Positions 2,905-56,591 of a DNA stretch of 64,000 nucleotides are shown in pieces. Every line of letters begins with the position of its first letter. The first letter of the stretch is position 1. Source of the DNA: Antedon mediterranea (taxonomy: Eukaryota; Animalia; Echinodermata); assembly GCF_964355755.1 (NCBI RefSeq), contig NC_092674.1:17484001-17548000 (forward strand), read 5' to 3'. The notes beneath the pieces were generated by a model. It ran no database searches. It was not told the origin of the DNA and worked only from the letters and a program-made list of their open reading frames with translations. Both the position numbers and the translations under genes were made by a program.

Positions 2905-2930
2905 TTTTGACATAACTAGTTACTATGGCT

Positions 2931-4289: not shown

Positions 4290-4320
<31 letters not shown>

Positions 4321-29793: not shown

Positions 29794-30116
29794 TTGTTTG
29801 TTTGTTTGTTCATTTTTATACTGGGTGACCTCTTCAGTCAAAGACTGATCTCCCAGAGGACCCAGTTGGTGATCAGTGGCTGTGATGTACTAATACACCG
29901 GGGTAACCCCCTACTCGTCTCGAAAGATGTACTAGGTTCTTTAAAGTGCACACGAGCTAGTTGTGTACACTTGACCTACGGTTTATAGTCCTTATCCGAG
30001 AAGACTCGTTCTACCACCAGAACCATGGAGTGAGTGAGCCTCGAACCCTTGCCGATGTTATGGCTACGTAATTACGGTTCCACTGTCTTAACCGCTCGGC
30101 CACTCACTCACTCACT
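29794..30116 (-). mobile_element. tRNA-derived SINE with a Deu/Nin-like central domain
   Basis: On the minus strand: A box TGGCCGAGCGG, B box GGTTCGAGGC, central TCGGATAAGGACTATAAACCG..TTAAAGAACC..GAGTAGGGG..CCCGGTGT resembling the DeuSINE core, and an (AAAC)n tail; interrupts gag. Confidence 0.8.
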
Positions 30117-30242
30117 ACGACGCGTTTTTCATCAAGGCAGAGAAATCTGCAACAATTATAACGGTGATAGAGGGTGTGTAAAGATAAACTGCAATTTAGC
30201 TCACATTTGCTTGTTATGTAAAGGCGGCCACTCACAGTCAGC

Positions 30243-31297: not shown

Positions 31298-31706
31298 GTT
31301 TTGCATTACAAATGTTTTGCGACTTCTTAATCCCTCGTAACACATAGTGGAGTCTGTTTGCCCCCACTGTAACATCTCGTAAACCTGCTTTAATATAATG
31401 GAAACGTATTCCCGCCAGATACAAGTTTATTGTTTCAAATTTCAGATCTAGCGCTTTTTTGCAATGGGTAACAAAGTATATAAGTTGGTCCTCGTCAATT
31501 AGCGGAAGTGTTGCTTTCTTTACTGGTACGCCTGACATGGTCAAGAATGTTAGGAAACACCGCAATGCAGATTTATATACTCTCTTCGTAGAATCAGAAA
31601 TAGAGTTGTCCCATAACTGTTCGACTTGTAGTTTCAATTCATTAGAAGCTCTGAATGGTGTACGCATGGTGTCGGAAGAGCATTGGCTGTTGGTACAAGC
31701 CGTCAA
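31298..31706 (-). pseudogene. N-terminal (core-binding/SAM-like) part of the tyrosine recombinase; catalytic domain missing
   Basis: SISDSTKRVYKSALRCF..LIYFVTHC..LKFETINLYLAGIRFHY..VLRGIKK, typical of DIRS YR N-termini; no R-H-R-Y catalytic region follows. Confidence 0.75.
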
Positions 31707-32229
31707 AATTTCTGCATCTGGTGGCGAGAAAGAGCATCAGCTATAACGTTATGTTTCCCTGCAATATGAGTAGCGCATATATGATAATTATGGATAGCAG
31801 AATGATATGTTAGTTTCCTCATCAGTTTCATAATATCAGGTATTCTGGACCTACCCTTGGAGACGATTTCAACCGTGGCCATATTATCGCAAAGGAACAT
31901 TATTCGGTTTCTAGCCCAATTATTACTCCATAATACACATGCCATGACGATGGGATAAAGTTCAAAGAACGCCATAGACGTCTTGTCCGTAAGGTATATT
32001 TGTGGGAAATTTCCCTGAAACCATTCGTTCCGATATATACCACCAAAAGATGTGCGTGTTGCATCGGTGTACAGCGAAATGTCATTAGCAATTGTGATAT
32101 TATCATTTAAAAAGAAAGATACACCATTCCAGTGTTTTAAAAACAGGGACCACATCGCTAAATCTGCTCTACAATCTTTGTTGATACGTACATGATGGTG
32201 TAGTTTCTTTTTTAGGCTGATTAAATAGT
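31703..32229 (-). pseudogene. DIRS-type RNase H (inverted segment)
   Basis: YLISL..DLAMWSLFLKHWNG..YTDAT..FGG..FELYPIVMA..CDNMATV..KGRS..HIAGKHNVIADALSR. Confidence 0.85.
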
Positions 32230-32878
32230 AGCCCCCTGCCACTGCTTCATGTTGTATATATAAAAAAAAAAAAAATAAAAAAAATGGATCTTCATCCAAA
32301 TACACATGTTCGGCTAGGGTAGCGCTTATCTTCCCATTGGATCTTCATCCAATTATCCAAGCCTCCCTACCACTGCTTCATGTTGTATATATATAAAAAA
32401 AATGGATCTTCATCCAAATACACATGTTCGGCTAGGGGAGCGCATATTCCGCCAAAACCCTCCATGTCTCCGTTCTCATCCATAATAGCAACAATAAAAT
32501 AATATACATATAACTAAAATACTATCTTTGGGGGCTTCTACTAATTTTATTCGCTCATTTGGCTGGTATAATTCTGGGGAATTATTTTGCCCCCAATTTC
32601 CACAATTTACCTCACGGATGTCACTTTACATCCTTAACTTACCGATATACTTAATAACAACCATTTGATTTACTCGCTCCTGTGACAATACACTGGACCT
32701 TTAATACAGCGATGTCATATGAGTGGTAGCCCCCAAGAGGCCAAATGTAGTTTATTATTAAGCTTTAGTAGTATTTAGCATTGCTTGTACGGTATCAGTA
32801 GAAATAAATATTATGTATTGTTAAATGTATACTCTTAATAAACTGGGAAAGCATTACTTATTTGTGTTGTGTGTAAAA

Positions 32879-34382
32879 GCATAATTATTGGATTTTAAAA
32901 AGTGGGACATTTTTCGAAAAAAATTCCTATGGTCCCCCGCAGGAAAATTTTTCGAAAAATGGCCAAATTTTTACCCTTTTATTTTTTGACATAACTAGTT
33001 ACTATGGCTCTATAAGATTATGTTAGCACAATATATTTGCATAAATGGCAATATTATAGCATAATTATTTAATTTTAAAAAGTGGAAAATTTTGGCATTT
33101 TTCGACCCTTTTATTTTTTGACATAACTAATTACTATGTCTCTATAAGATGATGTTAGCACAATATATGTGCATAAATGGCAATATTATAGCATAATTTT
33201 TGAATTTTAGACAGTTTAAATTTTGGCCATTTTTCAAAAAAAAAATTCCATAGGTCCCCCGCAGGGAAATTTTTGGGAAAATGGCGAAATTCGACCCTTT
33301 TATTTTTTGACATAACTAGTTACTAAGGCTCTATAAGATGATTTTAGCACAATATATTTGCATAAATGGCAATATTATAGTATAATTATTTAATTTTAAA
33401 AAGTGGAAAATGTTGGCATTTTTCGACCCTTTTATTTTTTGACATAACTAGTTACTATGTCTCTATAAGATGATGTTAGCACAATATATGTGCATAAATG
33501 GCAATATTATAGCATAATTTTTTAATTTTAGAAAGTTTAAATTTTGGCCATTTTTAAAAAAAAAATTCCTTTGGTCCCCCGCAGGGAAATTTTCGGAAAA
33601 TGGCCAAATTTCGACCATTTTATTTTTTTACATAACTAGTTACTATGGCTCTATAAGATGATGTTAGCAAAATATATCTGTATAAATGGCAATATTATAG
33701 CATAATTATTTAATTTTAAAAAGTGGAAAATGTTGCCATTTTTTGACCCTTTTATTTTTTAACATAAGTAGCCGCTATGTCTCTTTAAAATGATGTTAGC
33801 ACAATATATTTGCATAAATGGCAATATTATAGCATAATTTTTGGATTTTTTAAAAAGTGGACATTTTTGCCATTTTTCAAAAAAAATCCTATGGTCCCCC
33901 ACAAGAAAATTTTCGAAAAATGGCCAAATTTCAATCCTTTTATTTTTTGACATAACTAGTTACTATGGCTCTATAAGATCATGTTAGCACAATATATTTG
34001 TATAAATGGCAATATTATAGCATATTTTTCGAATTTTAAAAAGTGGAAATTTTGGTTATTTCTCGAAAAAATTCCTGTGGTCCGCAGGGAAATTGTCGGA
34101 AAATTGCCAAATTTCGACACTTTTATTTTTTGACATAACTATTTACTATGGCTCTATAAGATGATGTTAACACAATATATGTTCATAAATGGATATATTA
34201 TAGCCTAATTATTGAATTTTAAATGGTAGACATTTTGGTTATTTTTCGAAAAAATTCCTGTCGTCCCCCAACCGGAAATTTTCGGAAAATGGCCAAATTT
34301 CGACCCTTTTATTTTTTGACATAACTAGTTACTATGTCTCTATAAGATGATGTTAGCACAATATATGTACATAAATGGCAAT
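32879..34382 (+). repeat. Satellite A array
   Basis: Same unit as the other satellite A arrays. Confidence 0.95.
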
Positions 34383-34794
34383 AAATTAAGTGTAGCGCCC
34401 CCAACGTTCATATCGTTTTATGGAGTAGCGATTCCGAAAACATATTGTATACAAACCACACGAGGTACCCGGAAGCGATCAAGCATAAAACGACTGTATT
34501 TTAATAGCCAATAAAAACAAATAAAAACCGCGAAAGCCAGAAAAATAATGAATATTCATTAGAACAACCCTAGATGAAGGTGAAAAAGATGTTGATGTCG
34601 TTTTATCACGTGGATTTTCAGAGGGAATCTAACTGAAAGTTAACCAACATTGTATACTCAACGCCAGTTTTTTTCTCAAGTGATACATTTAAAAAGTAGG
34701 TATAAATTTTTTTTTCCATATCAGTTTAAAAATAATTTTTTCTGTTGAATTCTTTGATTTAGTTGGATACTATAGTTATCCTTGAATGTTTTAA

Positions 34795-36175
34795 AGTGGA
34801 GCTCCACCCAGAAAATTACTATTTTTCATACATTTCAACGATTATTTAAAAATATCATCGCTTATACTTCATATTTTTTTGAAATTTTTTTCAATGAGTA
34901 CGATTTTCTTGAAAATCACGCCTTTTTGCGTTTTGGGGGGATACCTTGTAATTTCCTATTCTTTGACATGCAAAAGGGGGGTATATTTGAATAATCCTAA
35001 AAAATTCATTTCTTCACCAAAAAAAAAATGTAAAATGTATATTTATGTAATTTTTCCAGATCTTTCTATTTCTGGTATTTTTATCACGTATACATTGCGC
35101 AATTTTGCGTAAATAGACACTTTCCCCCGTTCGGGTCCAATTGGGTTTTTTATTTTGCTAGGGAGTACGATCACGTGACATTTTTCACAATCACACTACA
35201 CTGCAGCTGGCGATCTGTTATTTTGTCGCGATGTTATTTTTGACGGGCGAAAAGTATATTAAAACATTCTGAATGTGACCCTATTATGTTTCACAGTGTA
35301 ATAATGTGATTATGAGACTATTACTAAAATGTCAAATTTAACGAGATTTGAGAAAGACGTGGCTATATATTCAATAAAGCTAGGCCTAGGCCTACTAGAG
35401 TGTAGGTATGTACCGATGCTGCGTGGCCTCTAGCTAGGCTAGGCTGACAGCAGTGAAGTTTGTTTTGCTGGCACCCGACCTTGGCCTACCCATGGGCCAT
35501 GATAGGGTGCCTGAATAGTTGCTTTTCAGTCAGGTCTAAGCTTGCACATCGCTTTACTACTCTTGTTCTGTATACTATAGGATTTTGTGTTTCACAATTC
35601 TTAATGTGCGAGAAAACCCAGGAACGATAAATGGGGCAAAACGACCATGCCTATGAATACATAGGCCTCTAGACAAAAATTCAAGGCTAGCTAGGCTGAG
35701 CAGAAGCTGAGCTAGGCCTAGCCCTAGCTTAAAGTTAAAAGCAATCTGATAAGATTATTATGCTGTTGTTGTACAGTGAAAATCATGAGGTTACATGTAA
35801 ATTATAATGACATTCTTATCGGAAATATTACTTAGGCCTAAACAAATCGTATTAATTAATTGTGTGTATAAAATTTATTCCCCATTTTTCGACACATAAT
35901 TTACCAAAGGGGAGACATTTCATCAATGCGTTGACCGGCGACTAAAACGCGTCAGTCGCTAAGTGTAACGCGTTTGCGACGTATTGTAAACTAATAACCC
36001 CTAAGTTACTGAAAAACTGTAATGTGTTAAAAAACACTATTTTCTGACCAATTTTTTAGAAATGATTTTTAGGAAAATATTTCCGTATTTGTCCTGTTTT
36101 TTTTTTATGTAATCACTTTCAATTAAACATACTTAAACATAATATAAGCTGAGAAAGTCTGAGTGTAGCTCCACT
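34795..36175. mobile_element. Non-autonomous Kolobok-like element
   Basis: TIR AGTGGAGCTCCACCCAGA / AGTGGAGCTACACTCAGA; TTAA TSD (34791-34794, 36176-36179); AG termini. Confidence 0.8.
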
Positions 36176-36887
36176 TTAACAAGGTTCGTATTCATATAGC
36201 CTGGCTGGATTTTTTCCTATGCTAGCTAGGCCCAGGCCCCCTTGCGTGGTTAAAACCAGCTGTGTAAGACTAATGGCTGTGTATTTTTAACAGGTAAACA
36301 TGTCTGTTCTGGGGCCTGAGTGACAGTTTAAAGCTGTTTCTAGTAGGCTAGCCTGGTCCTAATTAATAATAAGGCCTAGCCTAGGACCTAGCTAGGCCTA
36401 AGATATTTTAAAAATCATATTGGGAGGGGAGTTACACTACAGTAGGTCAGGCTACATGCCTATACTATATATAAAATATAGGCTACATCATCAGCAGGTT
36501 AAGGCCTAGCAGCCTACCTAAACCTGTCTTAGTCAAAGATAAGTTCTCGGGGTGTAATATATTAAAAGAAAGAAGCTATAGAGTACTGTGACATTAGATA
36601 TTTAATTATAACAAATGTATATTTCTTTCATATTTGTATTGTATATTTATTATTAATACAGTATTTTGATATGCAATCAAAATCTGAATCAGTATATAAC
36701 ATCAATTTCAATAAATATTTAATATATTAAAACCAAATTAAAATAAAATAACTTCCAAAAATTCAATTACAATTCATATACCATTTGTTAATATTTCCAA
36801 AATCATTGTTCTGGCAATAACAAAAAAACCACTACCATTCATAATATGTACAATACTGTAACAATTAACTGAGTGAGAAATAGCAAA

Positions 36888-39800
36888 CTATTCCTCAACT
36901 TTTCTGCACTTGGGCCTAGTCACCTCATGCTGGATCTCGGGTGAAATAAAAGTCAGATGTGACTTCATGATTGACATAAGCTGGTCAAGGTTGCTCTTTA
37001 ATCCATATACCGCCCTTTTCCGGCGATTAAATTCTGAGTGGATTAATTCGCCGCCTTGCTCAGCTCAGAGTCCAACTCCTACTCTCCATTCTTTCATAAA
37101 CGGTATTGTGTGGTGCTCCAACATGTGCAATTTTGGTTGAATCACATTTGGAGCGATGCGTCTGTATTCTTTGGAGAACAGTTGTATGTAGGTTTCTGTT
37201 TTGTGAAAAAATTGTTTTTTTAAATTTTAACATTTTATTTGAAAGATGTATTGTCTTTTGAAATGACAAAAAATCATGAATTAAATTTTAATGTAACAAG
37301 AAAGTTTATAAATGAGAATTTAAATTATACAGATGTTAATCACACATTAAGAATAAATAAAACCAGACAAAATTCACATTTTTTGGTCATCAGTTTTTGC
37401 TTACCATATTGATCTATTTCTGAATCAGTGATGCGCCTAGTATGGTTTATGCATTCATGGACAATAGTAAAGGTTTTGAATACAGGTGTAAATGATTCCT
37501 GTATCTTGTGCAATTTTGTTTCAAGCAGTTGCTTACAGTTTGTAGGACAGTGATGTATCTGTTGCTTTAAAGTCATTGAGACACCATCCATGAGCTTTTC
37601 TATGATGTTGAACTAAAAATAAAATGAATAGTTTAAAATAAAACATTTACAGTATGGCGAGAGTCAATCGCAAATAATTCTTAATTTTATTACTAATTTT
37701 GCTGTGTAAAAATTAACGAACTTCACATTTTAGGAATTTTAGTTACTCACTTTGCATGCTCTGTATACATGGTTTCCCACAAAACTCTTTCCGTGGTACT
37801 GCTGTCGAGGAATTTTATTTTTCCTCAACACCTCGTCCATTTTTGTACATAGAGGTCCAGTTCCAAATTTTATCTCTTGGTTCATAGTACTTCGGTATAT
37901 AAAATATAAAAGAAATATAGCATTAATTTTTATAGTAATGTATTGTATGTTTTAGACATAATTTTAAATTTTAAAGGTGTATACTGTAGTACTGACCAAG
38001 TCTTTGACCTCTTGTTCTTTCAGATTTATTATGTGGCCAGTCTCTGCAATCTCTGCAATCTTGTTATGCTGTTTTGTCACAAGTGACACTGAGAGCTCGT
38101 TTCTTAAATCCTCAAGATTCTCTTCTAAAGACTGGATTAATTTTAATCATTGTAGCATTTCGATGCGCTGCAGCTTCTGATATGCTTTTCTCAAAGTCTG
38201 CTAGATGATCACCTGAGATTATACAATATTGGTCAATCGAATAAATTTCAATCTGCATCAAAAATGTGCATCAAAATTAGTATATTTAAAAAATGTTAAT
38301 GATAATATGGATAATTCATAGAAAAATAAGTTTCAGCCAAAGGTTTGTTTATTATGCATAAAAACAGGATAAACAATTTCGAAATTTACTGAATTCTATG
38401 CGGAAAGGGACAATGTATATTTAAAAAGCAACTTGACCAATTGAGTTTATTTAATGTCAATGTAAAGTTGAAACAACATTTGAAGTTACCAGTCAAGATG
38501 TCACCATCCTGTCGCATGTTAAAAATTATAACATCAAGATTGTGCACGTCTTTTTCCAGCATATCATAGAGTTTTTTAAACAACCCAAGAGAAATGTGTA
38601 ATGCTGGTATTGACACCTGGAAAAATAGTTGATTGAGGAAATATTTAATAAAGAGGTATATTTATAAATTACTGTAACAATTGTTTGTTTTGACAGTTAT
38701 TTTATACTAACATTGTTATTTAATATGGAAGTACAAACACACATTTCATTGTTTGGAGTGTGTATTAAACTTTCTAAATTGAGATTTTAAATAATTTTGA
38801 ATTTAACCTAACATAAACACTGGGGACCTGTGCTGTTATGATTATTTACCTACCCTGTTTAATTCGATGTCTACCAGGTATGGCCTAACAACGCTGTGCG
38901 ATATTGTTTTGCTTTTTTTTTGTCACTCCCATGGTCTACAAAAGACTTGTAGTCACGATTGTAGGTCTTGAGACATCTACAGGCTTAAGGAACATTGTTG
39001 TTTCTAATGTCATCTTGATTACAAAAACAATAGATGCAACTGTACTTTCCTTTAAAAAAAATCAATTTTTAAATCTACATAATATATATAGTACTTCAGT
39101 TTTGTGTAACAAATGCCAAACAATGAGAGCTAATAGCCAAAATATAAAAAAAAAATTGTATTGAAACTGGAAATTGTACTTACCATTTGGGCCAACAAGT
39201 CCATATACCTTTGACAAAAAATCATAATCCCCAAAAAAGAATAGGCGGATATTTTGAGTTCTGTAAAATGAGAAGTTATTTTCATTCAATTACCATGAAT
39301 TCTAATTAATTACATTAATCATAATTAAAGATATACAAATTATGTAAAATTTTCAAATTAAGTTGCATATTATAATTATGTAGCTCTGCTATATACTTAA
39401 GTCAGTGTTACTCATTCCAATATTATACTACTGTATTTAATATTACTTTTTGGTCTTTGGTGAGGTCCACTGGTTTTCATCTAAATCCATGACTTCATCA
39501 AGAACCAGTTTCAAGCCTTTTTCGACATTAACTATAAAATCTGGTGCTTGGAATGCAAAAATGACAATAATATTGTGCTGTGCATTGGGTTTAGGTAAAC
39601 TGCAAATTTGAACTTCAAATTTAGTGGTATCACCACCCTTGTCTCCTCCAAACTTGAGAAATATATCTCCATCTTTGAAGAAGTTCAATTCATCAGACCT
39701 ACAAAATTTAAAATTGCTTGATTATTTTGTTAAAAAATTAAATATAATTTAAGTCTTCCCTGACTAGATGTGTAATTATTTGTGTACAGCCAAATCAAAA

Positions 39801-42800
39801 CCAGGCATTTGTCGTAAATGTGACATTTTGAGTTTTATAGGTATTTGTACAGAGCACATAATTTGCTTTAAAATACTGAAAAAATTATTCAATTTGGTCA
39901 AGTATTTTTAGAGTTATGATACAATAAGTAAAGAAATACAAGTAAGAATTCATTTTTATTTAGCAGTGAAAAATGCATTCAAAGATAAACAATAGTTCAA
40001 ACAGGAAGTTTAAATGTGCTGGCAGACAGCGACTCATGTTCACCTTGACAACGCTAACTTCTAGTATACCTATGACTTTGAAATTTAGCACAAATGTAAC
40101 TAATACATTTTTCTATAATCATTGAAATTTTCAAAGAAATCCAGTAACATTAACATTGTCAAATGAGACTTCAAATAACAACATACGTTAGTACACTTTT
40201 TTTTACTAAACTTATGATTGTTATGTGTGAGGCTTGTAATAACTATAAATAAGTACTATAAATAAGTACTATTAATAAATTTAAAAAATACAACACATAG
40301 AAATGAACCAAAATTAATGATACACAGACAGTTGATTGTGTTTGATGTGTTTAAATTTATTTACAATTGGTACACTTTAAATTATAACATTTTGGTCATT
40401 TCAGGCTGCGTGTTACAACAGTATTATCATCTTTTGTGCCGGGTCATTTAAATACATTCATATTTTTCGATACAATTATTTCACGGTTTTATTCAGGGTT
40501 ACGTTGCATAATAGAATACATGTGTCATGTATCATCAGAATCAAAGTCATTTTTGTAAAGTTATATTAAGCACCGTATCACCATTATTGGAGTTGTTTGA
40601 GAAGAGAAAGTAGCAACAGCATCACCACCACTGTCAAAACTATTGTATTGGTATTACATTACAGTATTACCAATCAAGATCTGAAAACAGAATGAAAAAT
40701 TAAATTAAACTTTTTTAAACACATTTAAAAATCTTTTTTTTTTTGGGCTAGGCCTAGACCAAGGTATGCTAGGTGGTTTTACTAGGCTAACTTGAAGTAC
40801 TAAGCTGGCATACAGTTCATCTCTTATCTTATGCCTAGGCTAGGCCTAATATTTTGATCAAAAGTGTTTCTGTGTTCACCAAACTGAGTGTGTTGCGCTA
40901 TAAAGTCATTTCGTACTTTCTAACCTCTTGTTGTTTATGATTCGCTAGCGAAGCCAATATTTCTACTTTTCATATTATATAAATCATTAAACTATTCCAT
41001 GTTGTTTTAGTATTATCTAGGATGCATAAATAGCAAGTATGAATTAATATTGAATGTTTTTTACAGTAAGAATGTTTTGTTAAAACCTTACCGCTTCCTC
41101 AGTGTACTTTGAATAGCTGTTAAAGGCAAATTTAACGCTTCAATGACTTGAGCCACTCTGTTAGCCAATCAAATTGCCTGTTTCAGGATTCCGTAGCAAC
41201 AAGACTGGTTTGCTTATACCAAAAGGTTATTAAAGAATGTGTTTGATTGGCTATACTATTATTTTACATGACCTACAACCTTTATCTTTGGAAAGATTTT
41301 TTCACGAGCTTTCTAAAAATACCACACATTAAGGGGTCTTCTCATAATCAAAGAGGTAAAAGTTGGTTAGAAATAGACACAAATTACAGAATAGAACTTG
41401 ATTTTTTCACCAAAGACGAAAAAGGGGGTCTCATTAAAATGTTATTTTCATTGATTTATACTTATAATTTCTTTAAAATACATAGATTTTTGGAATCTAC
41501 GGTAAATTTTCTGTAAGATTATTTAAAAAACTAAAAATGGTCAAGATATAGGTTTTACACATTCAGAAGCATTTTACAGAAATCCCTTGCTGCCGACAAA
41601 CGCCTGGTTTTGGTTTGGCGGTACACATTTTATTCTTGTATTTATACCAAATGCGATCTATTATAGTATATATAATTTGTGCCAATGATACAGTACTGAT
41701 GTATGAAATAGGTTTGTTTAAAAAATAACAACAAAAAATATTACATACATATCATATTTGTTTAGGTAGTCATAGATTAGTTCTTTGATTTTGGTTAGTC
41801 GGACTACTGCAACCTCCTCCAAAACAAGACCTCCTATAGATGTGGCTCCATCTCGTTTGACAAACATGTATTCCATAGAATCTACTATGTGATCACCGAT
41901 AATCTGTTCTTGGCAAATGCGCATTTGCCTTTCAGAAGCCAAAACTCCTGGGCAAAAAAAAATGTATATACAGTACTGATTAATTATAGTTTTTATAGTT
42001 TTCTATAGTATTCTAAATTCAATTTAAAAAGAAGTAAACTGTTGACTGAATAATAGTAAACAGTGGCTGTGTGGCCCGACGGAGGTCCACATACCCGACA
42101 CGAAAAGCAATAATAAAATAAATTACCTCCGCAGTGCTCGTTGCTGGCTCCAATTTATGCGGCAGGCATTCATGATTGCCAAACATCTTTGGGGGTCCAT
42201 TTTCTCTTCAGTACTTGTAACACTAACAGTTGTTGTGCACTCCGATTGTTTAACAATGTTTATTGGCTGAATTTGATCAAATAAAATATTTGTATGATTT
42301 ATCAAATAATAATGTATATGAGTGGATCAAGAGTGTAGGCCTACATTATGATAAATTTAAATTAATTGTAATGGGTTAAAAACTCACCCGTCCTCGAGTC
42401 ATAAGTGACACTTTCTTATTATTCATAAGGTCTTTCCGTACTATGTTGTGTGCCATGCTTTTCAATTCTTTTGGCCAAACCTCATTTGTTTGGGCAGTAC
42501 ATGTAATTTCTTCAACTGCACTTAAAATGTTGGTGAATGCCTGTTCTTTAAACGTTTTGCAAACATGATTGGGGGTTTCTGACCAAACTAATTGAATGTT
42601 ACATTGTTTGCATTGCAAAGGGACTCGTTTAAGCGATTGTTCTACAATAAGTGGAACTGGTTTGAGATCTTGGTCACTGACAATTTTGCTGCAGTTAAAA
42701 CAATCAATTGATTCTCGTCCTACTGCCTTAAACAATTTTTTTATGCAAAATGTACAAAAAAAAATGTTGACAAGATGTCTGTTGGCTGTCAATTGACAAC

Positions 42801-43186
42801 AAATTATTGCATATCTGACTTTCATACACTTGATTATCGTAATTTTCAAAAATTTTAAATTGAGGATTTAGTAGCAAGTGCTCATGGGTGGGAATAAAAC
42901 TGCCAGTAGTAGTGCTTCTGTTTTCGGGAAACTTGCATTTCTTCAGCCTTCGACCAGGTCTTGATTGTTGACTGAATAAGTAGCAGGCTAAGCATTTGTC
43001 TCCATGGTCTTTGAAATTAAATGGTGTTATGTTGTGTCCACCAAGTGCGCTAACGTGACAGCTTGCACATAGCCACTTAAGATTTGGATCCAAATTATAT
43101 TCATAAGTGTACTTTACATCTTTTATTTTAAATTTTTTTCCGCAACAGTAGCAAAGGGAACTTAATGCCCTTTCGTGAAACTCCAT
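36888..43186 (-). pseudogene. Intron-containing Chapaev transposase: Chapa Zn finger, RING, Zn finger and DDE core
   Basis: Approximate exons: 43186-42388 (H-x7-CYCCG..CASC..H..CLAC..GRR; RING ICNNLL..SCQHFF/CTFC..CFNC with a frameshift ~42760; CKQC..H), 42266-42127 (PINIV..CLAIM), ~41947-41749, 39698-39447 (GGDKGGDTTK), 39260-39184 (GDYDF..YGL.G), ~39050-38855 (CIYC), 38616-38490 (PALHISLG), ~38213-37997, 37889-37751 (QQYHGKSFVGN), ~37612-37405, ~37196-36888 (KLHMLEHH; EQGGELIHSEFN). GT-AG junctions are visible; several stops and frameshifts. Confidence 0.8.
39782..41626. mobile_element. Non-autonomous TIR element, Sola1-like, inside a transposase intron
   Basis: ~33-bp TIR GTGTAC(A/C)GCCAAA(T/C)CAAAACCAGGC(A/G)TTTGTCG; 4-bp TSD ATTT (39778-39781, 41627-41630), which fits the Sola1 AWWT preference. 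Confidence 0.7.
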
Positions 43187-44431
43187 TACTGTATATGAAA
43201 TAAAATATAATATAAAAAATATTAAATAAAAATAGCTCCGCAGCTTATCTGTGAAATATATTTGTAATTGTATGTGTAATTTTTATAAAGGCCTATAATA
43301 GTATAGTTACAGTAATGACTGTCACTCAGTCACACCAGCTAGCCTAAAAATGCACCAGAAAAGCAATAATTATTATTATAAACACATGCCATTAATTATT
43401 TGATAACAGTTATAATGATTAAATTTAGGATTAGGATAATTAAAGGTTTTACTACTACGAATTTTCTATGTTTGGGCCTAGCTTCATCCTAGGCTTACAT
43501 TACTGTCAAGTTTATCGCCGGCGTCAACGCACTTTCTAAGCCTATCGCCAAACCGTTTTCTCGCCGTTCACAATAACAATGTATAAAGGGGTTGCAAAAT
43601 ATGCGAGTTTTACTAAAAACTGAACCAGGCTATATTAACATAACTTGTATTATTTTATTTATATAATAATGATGGCCTATATTCTAGTTCGTTCTTTTTC
43701 TAAAAAAATGAATTATATCCAAAAAATAAGTTAAGAATACAATGATATTTTCTACTTACGATTGTTTACTATTTCATTACACAGTTTATATCGACTTCCT
43801 GGTTTATGTGTGGGAGATTATTTCAGTAAAATGGACAATATCGTCGTTTATTTATTAATTTATATTAAAGAAACAATAAAATATTGATTTTTTAATTGAA
43901 CATAAACTTTTTTAATCGTTTGGTTTTGTATAAAATGTGTTTTCTACATAAAAACTAACGGTAGCAAAATTTGATTTGGCGTTCGCGAAATAATGGTTTG
44001 TAAACAAAATTCATAAGTTCGCGCGGATCGGAGAGCGTCGTCTGCTAACACTGAGGGCGCTTTACTTTTTCTGATATCTTAACACTAGTTGAAACAGCTG
44101 TGTTGTCGAATTTTCAAAATTGGAAATTTTGTCAATTTTTCGAAAAAAATTCATATGGTCTCCTGTAGGAAAATTTTCGAAAAATGGCCAAATTTCGACC
44201 CTTTTATTTTTTGACATAACTCGTTACTATGGCTTTATAAGATTATGTTAACACAATATATGTGCATAAATGGCAATATTATAGCCAATTATTGAATTTT
44301 AAACGGTGGACATTTTGGTTAACGTTAGCAAAATATATCTGTATAAATGGCAACAGTATAGCATAATTTTCGAATTTTGAAAAGTTGAAATTTTTGCGAT
44401 TTGTCGAAAAATTTCCTATGGTGTCCCGCAG

Positions 44432-45879
44432 GCGATTTTTTTTCCCGTACGAGAGTTCCTCCATCGGTTCGTTTCGGACTCAATCGACTCTTCGGTAAGC
44501 CACCGATACTCACTGATGCGTGACAGCAACCACAAAACGTGAGCAGCTTCTTTGCACGAGTGACAAATTTATACATACTATACTAGAGGCCTAATACTAT
44601 ACTCACTGTAAATATAATAATAAATATTAATAGTAGTACTGAACGTCATTGTAATAATAATAATAGTCCTAGAATTTTAATAATATAATACTGTATAGGC
44701 AGCCACAAACCAATGTATGTACCATCAGATTCACAAACAGTAACACACACACACAGCAGCAGCACTTTGTTGGTCGTCACAAGCAAGGCCAGCTAGCCTA
44801 GCCCTACGTACGTGTGCTTCAATGTAGTACATTCCATCTACAGTACTATTTTTTATTTTAATAAAATGAAGTAGTAGGTTAGAAATTATATGTACAGAAG
44901 TAACACTAACAGATGTTTTTATCAAGAAAATTACAATTTTCTTCAGGTTTTTAAGTGTAACATTTGAAAAATTGTATACATTTAGGCCTAGTATTAGTAA
45001 CATGTATTCTTGTAAGTTGTAATGTATAGAAACACATGCTTGCTTATAAAGCGTTTAATATCGTGTTAATTTAATAATTGATGATAGTATCACATATAAT
45101 TATAAGCTTCCTGGAAAATGTGTTATTATTAAATGTATTTGTACTATTGCAGTCGTGTCAGTACCGTAATTGAATGTTTTTTACTTTGCATGTATTTTTT
45201 ATGATTTTCCAAATTACATATAATAAACAATAATATTAGTTGTAGGCCTATAACTTAATTAAAACTCCAAAGTTGCCTATTATTAAAAGTCTGAAATCTT
45301 TTTTTCAAGATTGGGGATAATTAATACGTACACCTTTAACGTAAAATTTCCATTACCTTACAATATAAATATTAATTTAATAATATTATTTTAAAAGGTA
45401 TACTAAACATACACTGTGCATAGGAATTCCTACTGTACATAATCATTTTAAATTCAAAAGTAATACCTTGCATAGGCTTACATAAGCTAGCCTAGCCATG
45501 GGCTAGCTACAATACCATAAACGATAAGAAAAAGAGCCTCTCGTTCGTGACAAAAGGTCGTTCAACTTCAAAAAATAATATCTGATACGACCTACTATTG
45601 GGTCGTAGACCTAAATATCTTCAATATGCTATTGAGTTCTTAATGTAATTACTAAGTAGGCCTAGTATTTATTAATTAATGTCATCAAATCAAAACTCGT
45701 ATTAGTGTAGATTTATTTTACTATTGTGAGAGCCTGTGTGAAAGTAAGCTCGCGGTTTGTAAATGTAAATTGTATTATGTTATCACGCATCAGTGAGCTG
45801 ACTTTACCGAATACCGAAGAGAGTCGATTGAGTCCGAAACGAACCGATGGAGGAACTCTCGTACGGGAAAAAAAATCGC
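44432..45879. mobile_element. Non-autonomous MULE/MuDR-like element
   Basis: ~60-bp near-perfect TIR GCGATTTTTTTTCCCGTACGAGAGTTCCTCCATCGGTTCGTTTCGGACTCAATCGACTCT; 9-bp TSD GTCCCGCAG (44423-44431, 45880-45888). Confidence 0.85.
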
Positions 45880-46112
45880 GTCCCGCAGGAAAATTTTCGA
45901 AAAATGGCCAAATTTTGACCCTTTTATATTTTGACATAACTAGTTACTATGGCTCTATAAGATGATGTTAGCACAATATATTTGCAAAAATGGCAATATT
46001 ATAGCATAATATTTGAATTTTAAAAAGTGGAAATTGTTTCCATTTTTCGAAAAAATTCCTATGGTTCCCAGCAGGGAAAATTTCGAAAAATGGCCAAACT
46101 TCAAACCTTTAA

Positions 46113-46309
46113 TTAGTCGCGTGGACGCGACTCTACAGTTCACTATGTCGGTCGATCAGTCTGTCTGTTGGTCCGGTATCACTTTTGGCTTTTATCGCAT
46201 TTCTGTACTTTTTGAACTGTTTTGATGTACAGAAAAGTTTTAAAGTACATTACTTTTTGAAAGTTCATTTATTTCTGAGAGCACGATACTTATTGCTGTT
46301 GGCCTTGTT
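46113..46309 (+). mobile_element. Short DINE-1/Helentron-like element (copy)
   Basis: Near-identical to 2218-2413, including the flanks. Confidence 0.65.
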
Positions 46310-46432: not shown

Positions 46433-49168
46433 AAATGCGATTTGAAGCTATTCTGTACACTTTGATGTTTTGTGTGAAAAAGTTTTGTCGAAATGCTCAA
46501 AATGGTCTAAAAACGTTTTTAAATACGATATTAAGCTCTTTTGTGCTCTTTGATGTTTTTGTGTAACCAAGTTTCATCGAATTGAACAAAATGGTATAAA
46601 ACGTCTCCAAATGCGATTTGAAGCTTTTCTAAGCACTTTGGTGTTTTTATGTTAACAAGTTTTTTCGAAAATCACAAAATGGTCTGAAACGTCTCAAAAT
46701 GCGATTTGAAGGTATTCTGAGCACTTTGGTGTTTTTATGTTAACAAGTTTTTTCGAAAATGACAAAATGGTCTAAAACGTCTCCAAATGCGATTTGAAGA
46801 TATTCTGTACACTTTGATGTTTTGTGTGGAAAAGTTTTGTCGAAAGCTCAAAATGGTCTAAAACGTTTTTAAATACGATATTAAGCTATTTTGTTCTCTT
46901 TGATGTTTTTGTATGAAAAGTTTTATCGAAATGCTCAAAATGGTCTAAAACGGTTTCTAATGTGATTTTAAGCACTTTGATGTTTTTGTGTAACCAAGTT
47001 TCATCGAAATGCACAAATTGGTCTAAAACGTCTCCAAATGCGATTTGAAGCTATTCTGTACACTTTGATGTTTTGTGTGCAAAAGTTTTGTCGAAATGCT
47101 CAAAATTGTCTAAAACGTTTTTAAATACGATATTAAGCTATTTTGTTCTCTTTGATGTTTTTGTGTGAAAAGTTTTATCGAAATTCTCAAAATGGTCTAA
47201 AACGTCTCCAAATGCGATTTTAAGCTATTCTGTACACTTTGATGTTTTTAACACTTTGGTGTTTTTATGTTAACAAATTTTTTCGAAAATCACAAAATAG
47301 TCTAAAACGTCTCCAAATGCGATTTGAAACTATTCTTATCACTTTGGTGTTTTTATGTTAACAGGTTTTTTCGAAAATCACAAAATGGTCTAAAACGTCT
47401 CCAAATGCGATTTGAAGCTATTCTGTACACTTTGATGTTTTGTGTGCAAAAGTTTTGTCGAAATTCTCAAAATGGTCTAAAACGTTTTTAAATACGATAT
47501 TAAGCTGTTTTGTGCACTTTGATGTTTTTGTGTGAAAAGTTTTAACGAAATGCTCAAAATGGTCTAAAACGGTTTCTAATGTGATTTTAAGCACTTTGTT
47601 TTTTTTTGTGTAACCAAGTTTCTTCGAATTGAACAAAATGGTCTAAAACGTCTCCAAATGCGATTTGACGCTTTTCTAAGCACTTTGGTGTTTTTATGTT
47701 AACAAGTTTTTTCGAAAATCACAGAATGGTCTAAAACGTCTCCAAATACGATTTGAAGCTATTCTGTACACTTTGATGTTTTTGTGTGAAAAAGTTTTAT
47801 CGAAATGCTCAAAATGCTCTAAAACGGTTTTAAATGTGATTTTAAGCACTTTGATGCTTTTGTGTAACCAAGTTTCATCGAAGTGCACAAAATGGTCTAA
47901 AACGTCTCCAAATGCGATTTGAAGCTATTTTGAGCACTTTGATGCTTTTGTGTGAAAAGTTTCACCAAAATGCTCAAAATGGTCTAAAACGGTTTTAAAT
48001 GTGATTTTAAGGACTTTGATTTTTTTGTGTAACCAAGTTTAATCGAAATGCACAAAATGGTCTAAAACGTCTCCAAATGCAATTGGAAGATATTTTAGGC
48101 ACTTTAGTCTTTTTATGTTAACAATTTTTTTCGAAATGCACAAAATGGTCTAAAACGTCTCCAAATGCAATTTGAAGCTATTCTGTACACTTTGATATTT
48201 TGTGTGAAAAAATTTTGTCGAAATGCTCAAAATGGTCTAAAACGCTTTCAAATACGATATTAAGCTATTTTGTGCACCTTGATATTTGTGTGTGAAAAGT
48301 TTTATCGAAATGCTCAAAATGGTCTAAAACGGTTTCAAATGTGATTTTAAGCACTTTGATGTTTTTGTGTAACCAAGTTTCATCGAAATGCACAAAATGG
48401 TCTAAGACGTCTACAAATGCGATTTGAAGCATTTCTAAGCACTTTGGTGTTTTTATGTTAACAAGTTTTTTCGAAATGCACAAAATGGTCTAAAACGTCT
48501 CCAAATGCGATTTGAATGTATTCTGTGCACTTTGATGTTTTTGTGTGAAAAGTTTTATCGACTTGCTCAAAATGGTTTAAAACGTTTTCAAACACGATAT
48601 TAAGCTATTTTGTCCAATTTGATGTTTTGTGTGAAAAGTTTTATTCAAATGCAAAAAATGGTCTAAAACGTTAGTAAATGCGATTTGAAGCTAATTTGTG
48701 CACTTTGATGTTTTTGTGTGAAAAGTTTTATCGAAATACTCAAAATGCTCTAAAACGGTTTTAAATGTGATTTTAAGCACTTTGATGCTTTTGTGTAAAC
48801 AAAGCTTCATCGAAGTGCACAAAATGGTCTAAAACGTCTCCAAATGCGATTTGAAGCTATTTTGTGCACTTTGATGCTGTTGTGTGAAAAGTTTTATCGA
48901 AATGCTCAAAATGCTCTAAAACGGTTTTAAATGTGATTTTAAACACTTTGATGTTTTTGTGTAACCAAGTTTCATCGAAATGCACAAAATGGTCTAAAAC
49001 GTCTCCAAATGCAATTTGAAGCTATTCTGTACACTTAGATATTTTGTGTAAAAAAATGTTGTCGAAATCCTCAAAATGGTCTAAAAGGCTTTCAAATACG
49101 ATATTAAGCTATTTTGTGCACTTTGATATTTGTGTGTGAAAAGTTTTATCGAAATGCTCAAAATGGTC
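46433..49168 (-). repeat. Satellite C array, reverse orientation
   Basis: Reverse complement of the 16796-18927 units (AAAATGGTCTAAAACGTCTCCAAATGC). Confidence 0.95.
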
Positions 49169-51147
49169 TTAAGAATTTCGATAAAACTTTTCACACACAA
49201 ATATCAAAGTGCACAAAATAGCTTAATATCGTATTTGAAAGCGTTTTAGACAATTTTGGCCATTTCGACAAAACTTTTTCAAACAAAATATCAAAGTGTA
49301 CAGAATAGCTTCAAATCACATTTGAAACCGTTTTAGACCATTTTGTGCATTTCGATAAAACTTTTCACACACAAATATCAAAGTGCATAAAATAGCTTAA
49401 TATCGTATTTGAAAGCGTTTTGGACCATTTTGAGCATTTCGACAAAACTTTTCAAACAAAATATCAAAGTGTACAGAATAGCTTCCAATTGCATTTGGAG
49501 ACGTTTTAGACCATTTTGTGCATTTCGAAAAAAATTGTTAACATAAAAAGACCAAAGTGTTTAGAATATCTTCAAATCGCATTTGGAGACGTTTTAGACC
49601 ATTTTGAGCATTTCGATAAAATTGTTCACACAAAAACATCAAAGTGTACAAAATAGCTTCAAATTGCATTTAGAGATGTTTTAGACCATTTTGTGCATTT
49701 CGATAAAACTTTTCACACAAAAACATCAAATTGCACAAAATAGCTTAATACCGTGTTTGAAATCGTTTGAAACCATTTTGAGCATGTCGATAAAACTTTT
49801 CACACAAAATCATCAAAGTGCACAGAATAACTTCAAATCGCATTTGGAGACGTTTTAGACCATTTTGTGCATTTCGAAAAAAAACTTGTTAACATAAAAA
49901 CATCGACGTTCTTAGAATAGCTTAAAATCGCATTTGGAGACGTTTTAGACCATTTTGTGATTTTCGAAAAAACTTTGGAACATAAAAATACCAAAGTGCT
50001 TAGAAATGCTTCAAATCGCATTTGGAAACGTTTTAGACCATTTTGTGCATTTCGATGAAACTTGGTTACACAAAAACATCAAAGTGCTTAAAATCACATT
50101 TGAAACCGTTTTAGACCATTTTGAGCATTTCGATAAAACTTTTCACACACAAATATCAAAGTGCACAAAATAGCTTAATATCGTATTTGAAAGCGTTTTG
50201 GACCATTTTGAGCATTTCGACAAAACATTTTCAAACAAAATATCAAAGTGTACAGAATAGCTTCAATTCGCATTTGGAGACGTTTTAGACCATTTTGTGA
50301 TTTTCGAAAAACCTTTTTAACATAAAAACACCAAAGTGCTTAGAAATGCTTCAAATCGCATTTGGAGACGTTTTAGACCATTTTTTGCATTTCGATGAAA
50401 CTTGGTTACACAAAAACAGCAAAGTGCTTAAAATCACATTTGAAACCGTTTTGGACAATTTTGAGCATTTCGATAAAACTTTTCACACAAAAACATCAAA
50501 GTGTACAAAATAGCTTCAAATCGCATTTAGAGACGTTTTAGACCATTTTGTGCATTTTGATGAAACTTGGTTAAACAAAAACATCAAAGTGCTTAAAATC
50601 ACATTTGAAACCGTTTTAGACCATTTTGAGCATTTCGATAAAACTTTTCACACACAAATATCAAAGTGCACAAAATAGCTTAATATCGTATTTGAAAGCG
50701 TTTTGTACCATTTTGAGCATTTCGACATAACTTTTTCAAACAAAATATCAAAGTGTACAGAATAGTTTCAAATTGCATTTGGAGACGTTTTAGACCAGTT
50801 TGTGCATTTCGAAAAAATTTGTTAACATAAAAAGACAAAAGTGTTTAGAATATCTTCAAATCGCATTTGGAGACGTTTTAGACCATTTTGTGCATTTCGA
50901 TGAAACTTTTCACACAAAAACATCAAAGTGTACAAAATAGCTTAATACCGTGTTTAAAATCGTTTTAAACCATTTTGAGCATGTCGATAAAAACTTTTCA
51001 CACAAAAACATCGAAGTTCTTAGAATAGCTTCAATTCGCATTTTGAGACGTTTTAGACCATTTTGTGATTTTCGAAAAAAATTGTTAGCATAAAAAGACC
51101 AAAGTGTTTAGAATATCTTCAAATCGCATTTGGAGACGTTTTAGACC
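49169..51147 (+). repeat. Satellite C array, forward orientation
   Basis: Orientation flips at ~49169. Confidence 0.95.
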
Positions 51148-52890
51148 GTTCAGCAAGAATACTGGTTGATTTACAGGTAGGTAAGGGTGTCTTATTTCCT
51201 CTATGCAGTAACGTGTTTACAATTTTTAATAATTGCTTCTGGTCGCCTATAGCATTATTTACTAGAGCTGAGTGATATTCAAACTTTGCAGTATGAATAT
51301 GTGATGATACACATTGGCGTTGATGTGTGTAAGCATGCCAATCAGTTTCGAGACCTGTCTTACGCCATTTCCTCTCCAGCTGCCTTCTTACTTTTTTCTG
51401 TTTTCGTATCTCATCAGTATACCATGGAGTTTGCGGTCGAATAGTCACCAGACGTGACTTAGTTGGAGCAAGTTTATCAATGATTGAACGCAATGTAGAG
51501 TTGTACATACATATAGCATCATCAATGTCACATGGAAGAGATGATACAGTCAGTGTTAGTGGTAGTAACTCGCTGACAACAGAGTCAGCACAGAGATTCT
51601 TGTAGTTACAACTAGAAACTATTTTCTGAGTTGGCGGCGGTTTATTTAACTGTAACTTACAATGTACGGCTGAGTGGTCAGATATATCTGGGATGCCCAC
51701 ATTGACATCAGTTAGAAAAGTGTCAGTTGATTTGGTAATAATCAGGTCAAGAGTATGACCTGCCTCATGGGTTGGTTGCTTAACATGTTGATTAAGATCA
51801 TAAACTTTAAGAAGGCTCATAAACTGCATAACCTCCTTATTCTCGGATTTGTCAAGGTGAAAGTTGAAATCCCCGGCAATGAGCAAGTCGGAATGTACTA
51901 ATGCAATGGTATCAAGCATGTTAGAGATCTCATTGAAGAAATGTGAGACGGTGAAACCATTTTTCTTGCTAGGAGGAGGACGATAGATAACTATGATTCG
52001 CAGTGTTCGAATTCCGTTACTAAATTGAATTCCCAACGATTCAAAAGTACTACAGTCAGGTAAGTCCAGAGAGCGTGTTTTTAGACAAGCTTTGTACATG
52101 AGGGCGAATCCCCCATGACGACCATATGTTCTAGGAACATGGTTAAACATGTAACCATCTGGAGTTATGCAGCCAGCAGAAATTGAGTCATCATCACGCA
52201 ACCATGTCTCAGTTAGCGCAAAAATGTCCAAATCGTTATCTATAATGTGCTCAAATATTGAAGTGGATTTCCGGTTTGATTCGGATCACAAATTGATCTT
52301 GCATTAAGTAAGCAAAAAGAAATTCTGGTTTGTGCACTGCTTGGATTTGGGATGTATTCTTGAAAAAATGATATATTTTGCTTTCTCCGCTTTGATGCGC
52401 CGCCACGGCATCCCCGTCTCGTTCGTTTTTTATTGTTAAGTCCAAGCCTACATATGTAACTCCAAGTAGATGAATCCAATCGGATAGATTTCAAACAGCA
52501 GCTAGATATGCTGTATAATACTTTTGATGTGTAGTTGTACATTGAACAAAATAAATAAATAAATGATGAAGAGAACACATTCCTAGCTAGGCTAAAGAAT
52601 GTCAGCATAGCAGCACAAACAACAACAAAGCAGATAGGCACACAACAGCCTACACAGCCTATGCTACAGAACAATAACAGCTAAGACAATGTTAGCTTAG
52701 GTAAGCTTTTAAAACAGCCTAACACACAGTTCAGGTACAAAATCTCTGATTAATATACTGTTCATGTAAGTCACTAAAATGATACAATGTATAAATAACT
52801 TTATATACTGGTGAAATAAGTGTAATAAGCGTATAAATGCGATCAACACTGTGCTGCCAGAAGCGCTCAGTGTGGCATTCACTAAGCACA
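51148..52890 (-). mobile_element. 5' portion of an L2/CR1-group LINE (endonuclease only; RT absent)
   Basis: RGCRGG..LLNARSI (52240-52674) frameshifts into DIFALTETWL..IYRPP..GDFN..PTHEAGHTLDLI..SDH..PWYTDEI..RRQLERKWRKT (to ~51148); flanked by satellite C. Confidence 0.85.
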
Positions 52891-53461: not shown

Positions 53462-55880
53462 CAGGGAAGAGTTAAATTACATGGAAAACTCACGAGCCGT
53501 TGAGGCGTGTTAATGCAATTAAATCGCTATTGTTCTCTATTGTTTTGTGAATAAACTAACTTCCCCTTTTGTCCCATACGCGCGGCACCGCCAATTACTG
53601 AATATGCTGCCACCAACGTGTAGATTGGCATTAGACTTGTTACCAGTCGTTTTTTTTCAGAAATCCTTTTTGGTTTTTTAAAATAAAATAAGAGGTTTAA
53701 CACTTAACGACTAATTTGAGACTATTTTGCACACGTTACACAAGCGTTTCCATTTTTTAAAATGTGTATTTTCACAAAGAAACACGCTTTTTAGGTGGAT
53801 TTTCGGTAAGTATGCAATGGCCTTTTACGAAATGTATCGTCTTTTATATCAGCATTTAGAGACATATGCCTAAAATTGCCTAATGTCTAGCTCAGATATG
53901 TGAAACCAATAACATCTATATATATTGTGGTCCAGTTTTTATTTGCGACCAATTCCGACCAAATACCAAAAATAAAAGATTTCTGAACCACCTTTACTCA
54001 GTTTTAGAGACTAAGATCGGCGGCGAGATGCTGGTAAGCTCCGCCCACATGCTATTCCAGATAGACGCTGTTGCTAGGCCTATCGGCCACCTATTGCTAT
54101 TCTGTCAAGCAACCTGTTTTAGTTTTTCAATTGTTAAATAAGTCAAAAATACCAGGCTAACATAAAATGAAAGTTCTAGACCTAGGCCCCTAATTAAAAC
54201 AAACTTCTATTAGAGTAGGTTTACCTAGGGCTAGCTAATAAGCTAGGGCCTCTAGCTAGGCCTTCCTCTCTTCATCCAAGTGCAATTCATCCCAATGATG
54301 GTACCCAAGATGCTGCCTACAGAAGGTATTGGTTTCTGAATTTTTTTATTTGAATACTGTATATAATAATGTTTCCTTTTTTTCATCCACAGTTTCTTCA
54401 TTTGTTGACATGGCCAAGATATTCCTTTCACAGAAGAAGCCTGATGGTACAAGACGGATTGTGTACTTTTTCCGTGAGAAAAACAACCAGGATGCTCTAG
54501 AAAACTATTCCAGTATAGAAAGGAGTTGCCTTGGGAGATGGGAAAATCTGACAGTCATAACTTATTAGTTATTTTAAATTGATACTTGTTTTGTAATCTG
54601 TTGATTCAGCCATTTGAAGTAGATAAAGAATGTCACGGAACAAAATATATTTTAGTACTTACGAAGAATCTCTTTTTTTACTCTGGTATTGATAAACATT
54701 ATGACATCATGTAACAATTTTAATAAAAAATTGTTTTGTAAATAAAGTATATTCTAAATTGTATGTTGGTTTGACTAAAAACAAAACACATAATTTGATG
54801 AATACATACTTTGAAATATACCTGTATTGACATGATTATACAGTATTGATTTTTATACAAAATAAATTTACAACTCCAACCTTAAACTTTTTTTGTCTTT
54901 TGCTTTTATTTTATTATTTGTTAAGTTACACCAGTGTGTGATAATACTCTGTTTGATATTGGAATTACACATTCCCTTTAGCGACAAAAACCTCTCCATT
55001 TCTAAATCTAAGTTTCTAAAAAACAAATTAATACATCTTTTATGTGAAAAGCACCCCCTCCCCCTTTGAACGTCACTTCAACCAGTCATTGGTGTAGTCT
55101 ATAGGAAAGAATTAGTTTCTTCTATACTTTTGACCTCCCAGCACAATAAAGTTCACATAAAATCATATAATACAATGCAGAATTATTTTCAGGCAGGGAA
55201 GAACTCTGGGCCTGGCCCTAGACCTAGGTAGGCTACTGGTACATGCAACTGGCGCGCACAGGAGATACTTTTAATGGCCGAGTAGCCTACAAATACACTC
55301 TTATTGTTAAAACAGGATCAGGCTAACTTAGTTTGGTAAGCATATCAATTCAAATAGGCCTAGGTAGCTAGCCAGAAGAGAAGATTGTAGGCCTAGCCTA
55401 ATAGTAGTTGAGTAGGGCCTATTTTTAGGGCCTAAAGTAACTAGCCTAGGCCTAGCTAGGAGTGCCTATCTATTACATTCTTACTAGCTAGGGCCTAGGC
55501 CTAGGCCTACTAGCCCTAGATTGAAGTAGGACCTGGTGTAGCAAGTAGGCCTAGCCTATTACATATACTTGAAATGTGCGTACGGAAATTTTCTAAAAAC
55601 GGAAAATACAAATACGACGACGACTACGTCGCGATATATATCGAAAAAGTTTAATGCGTCAGGTTACCAAGGGGCTGGGGGCGGTTCGACGAAGACGTCA
55701 TCAGTAGTGTGTTGTTGCATGCGGTCACCGACCGGAAAACAATCGCTTCTGAGCATGCGCAAAGCAATTACTTCGTCTTGAGCGAACATCCGTTGATTAT
55801 GTAATCGAATCGGCGGTGCCGCGCGTTGTAACGTTTGATGTAAGGTCCGTGAGTTTTCCATGTAATTTAACTCTTCCCTG
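53462..55880. mobile_element. Non-autonomous P-element-like transposon nested in the Academ element
   Basis: Perfect 33-bp TIR CAGGGAAGAGTTAAATTACATGGAAAACTCACG; 7-bp TSD GTAAAAG (53455-53461, 55881-55887); CA...TG termini. Confidence 0.8.
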
Positions 55881-56591
55881 GTAAAAGGTAGGTATCTTTT
55901 CTAGCTGTTAAAATGGTTATGGCGACGCGAGCCACGTGTGTTGGTATAGGATGAGATGGGAACGCGTGTTCTATGTGTCGCGTGTGGGGGTTTATTAGGT
56001 CATTAACGCACGACATACCATATCTGTCTGGACCTAGGCCTACGTACGAGGCCTAGCTAGCCTATGAGTTTTTTATAATATTTAATAATAATAATGGGAT
56101 AGTACAATATAAATCCATCATAATATAAGCCTAGCTTCTATTACTAAATTAGTGTAGTAGGATAGGTAGGACCTACTGTAGCTAGCCAAGAGTAGTAGGC
56201 TTTTATTTTTTATTATTAATTTTGTTTTCATTAATATTTTTAGTACAAAATATTACTAGGCATATACTATATATGCCTAATAATACCTAGTACAATATAA
56301 AACCATGTTATTATTTATTCATTTTTACGGTACTATATATAATATAGTATAGTTGTAGCCTATTTTTATTATTAATTAGCCTTCATTAGAGTAGGCCATA
56401 TTTTATTAAGTAATAATAGTATGCCTGGTAGTGTAATCAACTGCTGTGTGTTGGACAATTATTAATTCATATTTGCATAATTGTTATTTTTCAGGTGTGG
56501 TTGATAATCGGCCTAGTTTAAATGTAAGTTTTAGATATTTATTGCTACAGTAAGGTAAGTAAAGGTAGGTACACATTAATTAATACTTAGA

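Follow-up and report, generated by a model that had tools for sequence, protein, structure and literature searches.

A 12/23-like spacing of the terminal sequences in a large part of the Chapaev group of transposons

Does the RSS-like terminus at positions 44102-44064 of the window (the whole 64-kb stretch of DNA that was analysed) belong to a transposon family whose two ends are laid out like the 12- and 23-spacer RSSs? Direct re-reading of the minus strand agreed with the original prediction: the end consists of CACAGCT, 23 bp and AGAAAAAGT, in which the heptamer agrees with the RSS consensus at 5 of 7 positions and the nonamer at 6 of 9, with AA at positions 5-6. The heptamer-like CACAGCT of this 5' terminus (44096-44102, minus strand) opens a terminal inverted repeat of ~13 bp (44090-44102) and is followed on the same strand by the 23-bp spacer of the long end (44073-44095), a length measured in one copy, that of the window, and by the distal box (44064-44072). 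Matches of the RSS type were as common in 40 shuffled windows as in the 64-kb window itself, with 3 observed against 4.5 ± 2.1 for spacer 23 and 6 against 4.2 ± 2.0 for spacer 12, so the RSS match alone is at chance level; given a terminus, a nonamer of this quality would fall at precisely 12 or 23 with a probability of ~0.023. The terminus itself is real, since the host satellite starts immediately beyond 44102 in the window sequence and the first 10 bases also open the other end of the family in four public runs, where the flanks are all different. The site is almost certainly the end of a Chapaev-type transposon, and the proposal that it terminates a transposon with a RAG1-like N-terminus was borne out.

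The terminus bounds a decayed element of ~9.7 kb (34384-44102) within a tandem satellite of about 186 bp. Comparison with P0155, a protein of 890 aa whose source label is the crinoid Antedon mediterranea, outlined on the minus strand a decayed, spliced transposase gene of the Chapaev type (36888-43186) with Chapa, RING, GRP motif and DDE core. Its exon pieces are 91-97% identical to P0155 and its lesions comprise frameshifts near 42760, 38910 and 38138 and stops near 38985 and 37066. An intron of the gene holds a 1.85-kb insertion (39778-41626) with 34-bp inverted ends (39781-39814 and 41594-41627), and the joint 39777-41627 that spans it was present in three of four runs. In run X1 the summed contig depth was ~100,000 over 34384-36300 and ~1,500 over the coding exons, depth not being equivalent to copy number; the high depth of the 3' 2 kb, together with joints that link the 3' part to the 5' end, suggests many non-autonomous derivatives.

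To identify the element we used the domains, motifs and termini, the quick tree described below being built from unnamed proteins. P0155 contains a Cys/His N-terminus, a RING (PF00097, 26.2 bits against a cut-off of 21) and DUF1280, and its core motifs are D402, D478, C497-C500 as C(2)C, L564-H565, H812-H817 as H(4)H and EQGGE at 834-838. Of these motifs, C(2)C, LH and H(4)H are characteristic of Chapaev (PMC4079192, section 14), for which a RAG1-like N-terminus, a Chapa domain and, in some subgroups, a RING have been described (PMC4411706). The N-terminal Cys/His pattern of P0155 was compared by eye with the published Chapa alignment (PMC4411706, supplement 5), and the CAC terminus that is a hallmark of Chapaev is present at 44102 and at the partner end. 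A profile of P0155 and 23 relatives matched RAG1 99-382 (E 1.5e-27) and the solved NZD (8e-12). For the RAG1 core, phmmer from the transposase found only the RING region and the profile gave no significant core stretch. The CCGHC C-terminal tail was absent from P0155 and was not seen in alignment A1, and none of the eight listed opposite-strand frames of at least 70 aa was kelch-like (RAG2L) by eye, an inspection that a spliced relic could escape. Word-index protein searches returned P0001 only. Chapaev elements make target duplications of 3-4 bp; for the truncated window copy the evidence comes from the second element (2931-6102) and from outside copies described below, which show 4 bp. An identity as RAGL or Transib was rejected on these duplications of 4 bp rather than 5 bp, the missing CCGHC and a core without significant sequence similarity to RAG1; the combination of Chapa and RING with the C(2)C/LH/H(4)H motifs and the fold fits a RING-bearing Chapaev.

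Next, we looked at the other end of the element. In the window the 3' end is truncated, its heptamer and spacer being deleted, and a box remnant AATTAAGT remains with the block shared by both ends (34384-34403, plus strand). The intact 3' partner end reads CACAGCT, 13 bases and RAATTAAGT in all four runs (one contig each, three organism codes, different flanks). The shared block at 44052-44067 (minus strand) is identical to 34388-34403 at 13 of 16 positions, a value reached by 3 of 2000 shuffles, and sits exactly 10 bp deeper at the 5' end than at the 3' end, so the window family is 23/13 with an offset of 10. An alternative box for the 44102 end, at spacer 10, scored -3.8 and was dropped, the 13/16 block favouring the offset of 10 between the ends.

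The partner had previously been sought in a 12-spacer end at 2931. This pairing was mistaken: 2931 belongs to another element, the spacer of the true partner is 13, and the elements 34384-44102 and 2931-6102 have no meaningful internal DNA similarity. The CACA-N6-TCA and AAGT noted as common to the flagged end and the ends at 2931 and 6102 are indeed shared. The second element is non-coding, carries a 4-bp target duplication, GGCT (2927-2930 and 6103-6106), and occupies, duplication included, 2927-6106 inside a satellite unit. One of its ends consists of CACACTC, 12 bp and ACAAAAAGT (2931-2958, plus strand), with the best box at spacer 12; the other consists of CACATCC, 21 bp and ACATTAAGT (6066-6102, minus strand), at an offset of 9 to the first. 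The ~186-bp tandem satellite found at 1100-7900, 18900-25500, 32900-34383 and 44103-46200 hosts both CAC-ended elements, a possible sign of target preference.

The window is rich in other repeats. An 87-bp satellite in both orientations gives long inverted repeats at 16800-18950, 46600-51000 and 63680-64000, a strongly GC-skewed array of a 25-bp minisatellite extends over ~8.8 kb at 7950-16750, and a perfect 33-bp inverted repeat pair occurs at 53462-53494 and 55848-55880, 2.35 kb apart. Retroelement relics were found at 26474-28947 (a LINE with a reverse transcriptase match), 29142-32344 (a second reverse transcriptase, next to frames that look DIRS-like) and 51119-52285 (a LINE endonuclease). 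A second large transposase-like frame with stops, presumably KDZ/Zisupton-like, gave weak DUF6589 and CXC matches at 56580-61758. A motif AGCGCCC(T/C)C, which we take to resemble the CTCF motif, recurs near mobile-element ends at 53060, 63626 (reversed), 2963, 44054 and 34394.

We then turned to relatives outside the window. A metagenome scan gave 93 related loci, 80 of which were kept and clustered by DNA into 58 families; among 41 stretches scanned in viral contigs there was no relative. Six families were chosen by eye for CAC ends that closely bracket the coding region (L016, L022, L047, L067, L070 and L077), and their 5'/3' spacers were 12/22, 12/23, 11/22, 12/23, 12/23 and 11/22. Beyond base 13, the end-to-end match summed over the six peaked at offset +10/11 with a value of 49, against 38.6 ± 1.4 (maximum 44) in the null; the peak was matched by none of 400 shuffles, corrected for all offsets, and +10/11 was the top single offset in only three of the six families. 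Nine of the 13 outside copies with both ends carried a 4-bp target duplication (two of the nine represent a single insertion), and 5-bp duplications were absent. Candidate end pairs lying far from the coding region or unlike the family tip were dropped (L001, L005, L013, L025, L042, L056, L061, L068 and L073), as were, on the same grounds, outer end pairs in L051, L053, L074 and L077, taken as chance or other elements.

Held-out ends were called on their first 13 bases only, and the proximal score cut of 14 was set after the output had been seen. All seven held-out 5' ends scoring at least 14, out of nine, placed the best-scoring box at 11 or 12; the remainder were L001 at 22 and L035 at 25 with a negative score. 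For the five held-out 3' ends the best box lay at 21 in the high-scoring L033 and at 16, 27, 24 and 9 in four low-scoring ones. Leave-one-out with the box matrix recovered the 5' spacer in five of the six chosen families and the 3' spacer in all six. With a lower proximal cut of 11, 20 of 3820 interior CAC sites passed. Under looser cuts, nine of ten inward-facing matches (among 1088 CAC sites) fell at 11, 12 or 22, against one of six in the outward-facing control (among 1023 CAC sites), seven of the ten being families already in the held-out count.

The asymmetry also occurs in reverse. In the complete element L006 the 5' spacer is 22 and the 3' spacer 12, and its two ends agree at 23 of 26 bases at offset -10 and at 12 or fewer at any other; no target duplication was seen in its flanks. 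In L009 the 3' end, judged by eye, has a spacer of 12. The 5'-long order of the window family is thus not unique. Within the list of 20 outside ends above the score cut, 19 lie at 11, 12, 22 or 23 and one at 21. The 14 end-bearing families compared have a core identity of 31-76% (median 42) and different spacer sequences; they are diverged but not independent, because the quick tree places all of them in one branch (SH-aLRT 93), next to which P0155 forms a long branch. The original prediction of a 12/23-like family architecture therefore stands in part: ends one helical turn apart occur on independent elements, and the pair in the window is 23/13. The spacers that it proposed to measure at both ends proved asymmetric in the window family and its relatives, with the A-tract mostly absent. 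A spacing of the 12/23 kind characterises much of the Chapaev group, and asymmetry of the ends by one turn is very likely a family trait of the group.

Some of the outside loci deserve mention in their own right. The near-intact, multi-copy elements of the L067 and L077 families look recently active. The L070 contig carries two different Chapaev families, at 2976-7489 and near 12194. A single short locus from the genome scan, L081, has a Chapaev-like transposase on a 2.3-kb contig of a bacterial MAG; it is likely a binning contaminant and was left out of the analysis.

The sequence of the distal box tells a different part of the story. Over the 20 outside ends its consensus is R-C-A-Y-T-T-A-G, with C in 19 boxes and A in 19. 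The A-tract, read as AA at positions 5-6, is present in two of the three intact window ends, the flagged one among them; as a family feature it failed, occurring in only 2 of the 20 outside boxes. Chapaev ends are thus RSS-like in geometry and mostly not in the A-tract. AGAAAAAGT is a diverged Chapaev box in which the C that is nearly invariant at position 2 is missing; its score on the family box matrix is low, and spacer 23 is outside its two best scores. With this poor score and a transposase without helices at the NBD position, the flagged end is an atypical one for the Chapaev group.

To compare the proteins with RAG1 we relied on predicted structures. Residues 285-885 of the P0155 model (pLDDT 78.6) align to RAG1 458-1008 with Z 29.2 and rmsd 4.4 over 460 aligned residues, ahead of amphioxus RAGL (Z 24.4), HzTransib (23.7) and the P transposase (11.1). 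The transposase core is thus predicted to have a RAG1-like fold, its kinship to RAG1 being by fold only. In 13 of the 14 families (the region is not covered in L052), ~55 residues separate the G-[QR]-P motif from the first core helix; in L067 they are predicted as three helices. Among 48,161 chains the L067 segment found the RAG1 NBD first, weakly (Z 4.5, rmsd 4.1 over 56 aligned residues); a further RAG1 chain ranked third, and a protein of no relation was tied with the NBD match, at Z 4.2. Foldseek also placed RAG first, at E 4, and sequence searches of Pfam and the PDB, with the segment as query, gave nothing relevant. The segment directly precedes the helix at which the RAG1 core match starts, which is the position of the NBD in RAG1. 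Most Chapaev transposases are predicted to carry a three-helix NBD-like segment. P0155, with a gap around residues 263-290, and the 48%-identical P0002 have no such helices; the window family keeps the GRP motif. In the window, at 42126-42400, the ~55 NBD-position residues of most relatives are missing, as in a natural deletion variant; the gap lies within one exon, so the absence of the helices is not a gene-model error. The window family retains the offset between its ends although its transposase has no NBD-position helices.

We give a probability of about 0.6 to the reading in which the ends, one turn apart, have tip and box read together, with short end pairing with long as under the 12/23 rule. 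The Chapaev transposase would then act like RAG1, its core binding the 13-bp tip and cutting at CAC, and an NBD-like dimer might bind both boxes and pivot to absorb the difference of 10-11 bp. The NBDs of RAG form a dimer that contacts the two nonamers together and, by pivoting, enforces 12/23 (10.1101/2023.08.20.553239). That the box is read by an NBD-like dimer seems slightly better than an even bet. The layout would go back to the ancestor shared by Chapaev, Transib and RAG, and shared descent of the Chapaev ends with the RSS is, in our judgement, fairly probable. In the window family, which has lost the helices and whose box has diverged, reading would probably fall to the GRP hook that remains or to a different domain, unless the box is a relic. 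A bolder version, for which we hold the odds to be against, makes the 12/23 rule older than RAG and Transib: a true NBD in Chapaev would enforce short with long on inherited ends, no RAG2 being seen, and the window family would be a natural NBD deletion whose spacing is kept otherwise.

Among the findings that weigh against this explanation is the case of the P elements, whose ends have a comparable offset and whose binding domain is unrelated. Their spacings of 9 and 21 bp have been likened to 12/23 (PMC7776569), and phasing by one turn could be a general solution for dimeric transposases, in which case the asymmetry would be functional and would have arisen apart from the RSS. The departure of the box from the RSS nonamer in the A-tract and the retention of the offset in a family devoid of the NBD-like helices fit such a separate origin. 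We consider it unlikely, since the distances from the CAC tip fit 12 ± 1 and 23 ± 1, beyond the offset alone, the fold is closer to RAG1 (Z 29) than to the P transposase (Z 11), and the best structural match of the segment is the RAG1 NBD.

More doubtful still is an alternative in which the transposase or a host protein binds the box and each end is helped on its own, with no rule of short with long. The window family and L006 have a conserved block longer than nine bases, a similar motif, AGCGCCC, lies away from these ends at 53060 and, reversed, near 63626, and in amphioxus RAGL the NBD equivalent adds little to cleavage (10.1101/2023.08.20.553239, PMC7204232), all of which independent sites would accommodate. 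Such sites, however, need no offset of 9-11 across families 31-76% identical, nor its retention when the polarity flips. Chance combined with selection of ends is very improbable as a source of the pattern, even considering the chance-level RSS matches in the window, the choice by eye of the six training pairs and the 20 of 3820 interior CAC sites that pass the low cut: it is opposed by the shuffle test corrected for all offsets, the held-out ends with their outward-facing control, and multi-copy boundaries whose flanks differ, 9 of 13 copies having a 4-bp duplication. Our preferred reading remains that of jointly read tip and box, from which we infer a short/long pairing rule in Chapaev; a function of the spacing, like a shared ancestry with the RSS, would be part of it.

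The origin of the 12/23 asymmetry is debated, between a Transib seed and the ends of RAGL-A (10.1101/2023.08.20.553239, PMC8355894). Ends resembling RSS12 and RSS23 at 5' and 3' have been described for Transib5, Transib2_AG and TransibN1-3_AG (PMC1131882, legend of Fig. 4C), for AanRAGL and subgroup I Transibs (PMC9435367) and for PflRAGL-A (10.1101/2023.08.20.553239). The literature covered, in part, included papers that mention Chapaev together with the RSS, PMC8355894, PMC7204232, PMC3014272, PMC12730594, supplement 5 of PMC4411706 and supplements of PMC4079192, and within it we found no account of two-part ends one turn apart for Chapaev; the Repbase Reports that define Chapaev, Panchin and Moroz 2008 and Yuan and Wessler 2011 fall outside this scope. 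The term TIR does not occur in the 2026 Chapa-domain preprint. Asymmetric ends are thus known for Transib, RAGL and P elements, and the Chapaev case is apparently new, no report having been found.

These results indicate that antibody-gene assembly likely follows a spacing rule older and more widespread than described. Chapaev is only distantly related to other Transibs (2015, PMC4411706), so asymmetry across Chapaev would shift the origin of 12/23 to the root of the Chapaev/Transib/RAG group, and it would set a conserved geometry apart from a changeable box sequence. Many near-intact one-gene transposons, of both polarities and with and without the NBD-like segment, make the rule testable without RAG2.

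Finally, we compared the elements with known systems. They are like RING-bearing Chapaev subgroups in their CAC termini, 4-bp duplications (seen in relatives and in the second element), Chapa and RING, and the motifs C(2)C, LH and H(4)H, but the window family is without ~55 residues of most relatives, and two-part ends one turn apart are not described for Chapaev in the literature covered. Transib has ends resembling RSS12 and RSS23 and differs by 5-bp duplications, an A-rich nonamer and the absence of Chapa and RING. PflRAGL-A and AanRAGL share the conserved tip and distal box, with a length difference of 9-10 bp, whereas RAG2L is present in them and their duplications measure 5 bp; RAG1L-A proteins are distinguished by the CCGHC tail and by 35-39% identity to RAG1, to which the Chapaev core is linked by fold only. 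The Drosophila P element, a working analogue and not a member of the group, has a binding site offset by ~one turn between its ends, together with 31-bp repeats, 8-bp duplications and a THAP domain. With the V(D)J RSS and the RAG1 NBD, Chapaev shares the CAC tip, a box at 12 ± 1 or 22-23, the RCA start of the box and the RAG1-like core fold, whereas its box usually has TT instead of AA at positions 5-6 and no RAG2 is seen.
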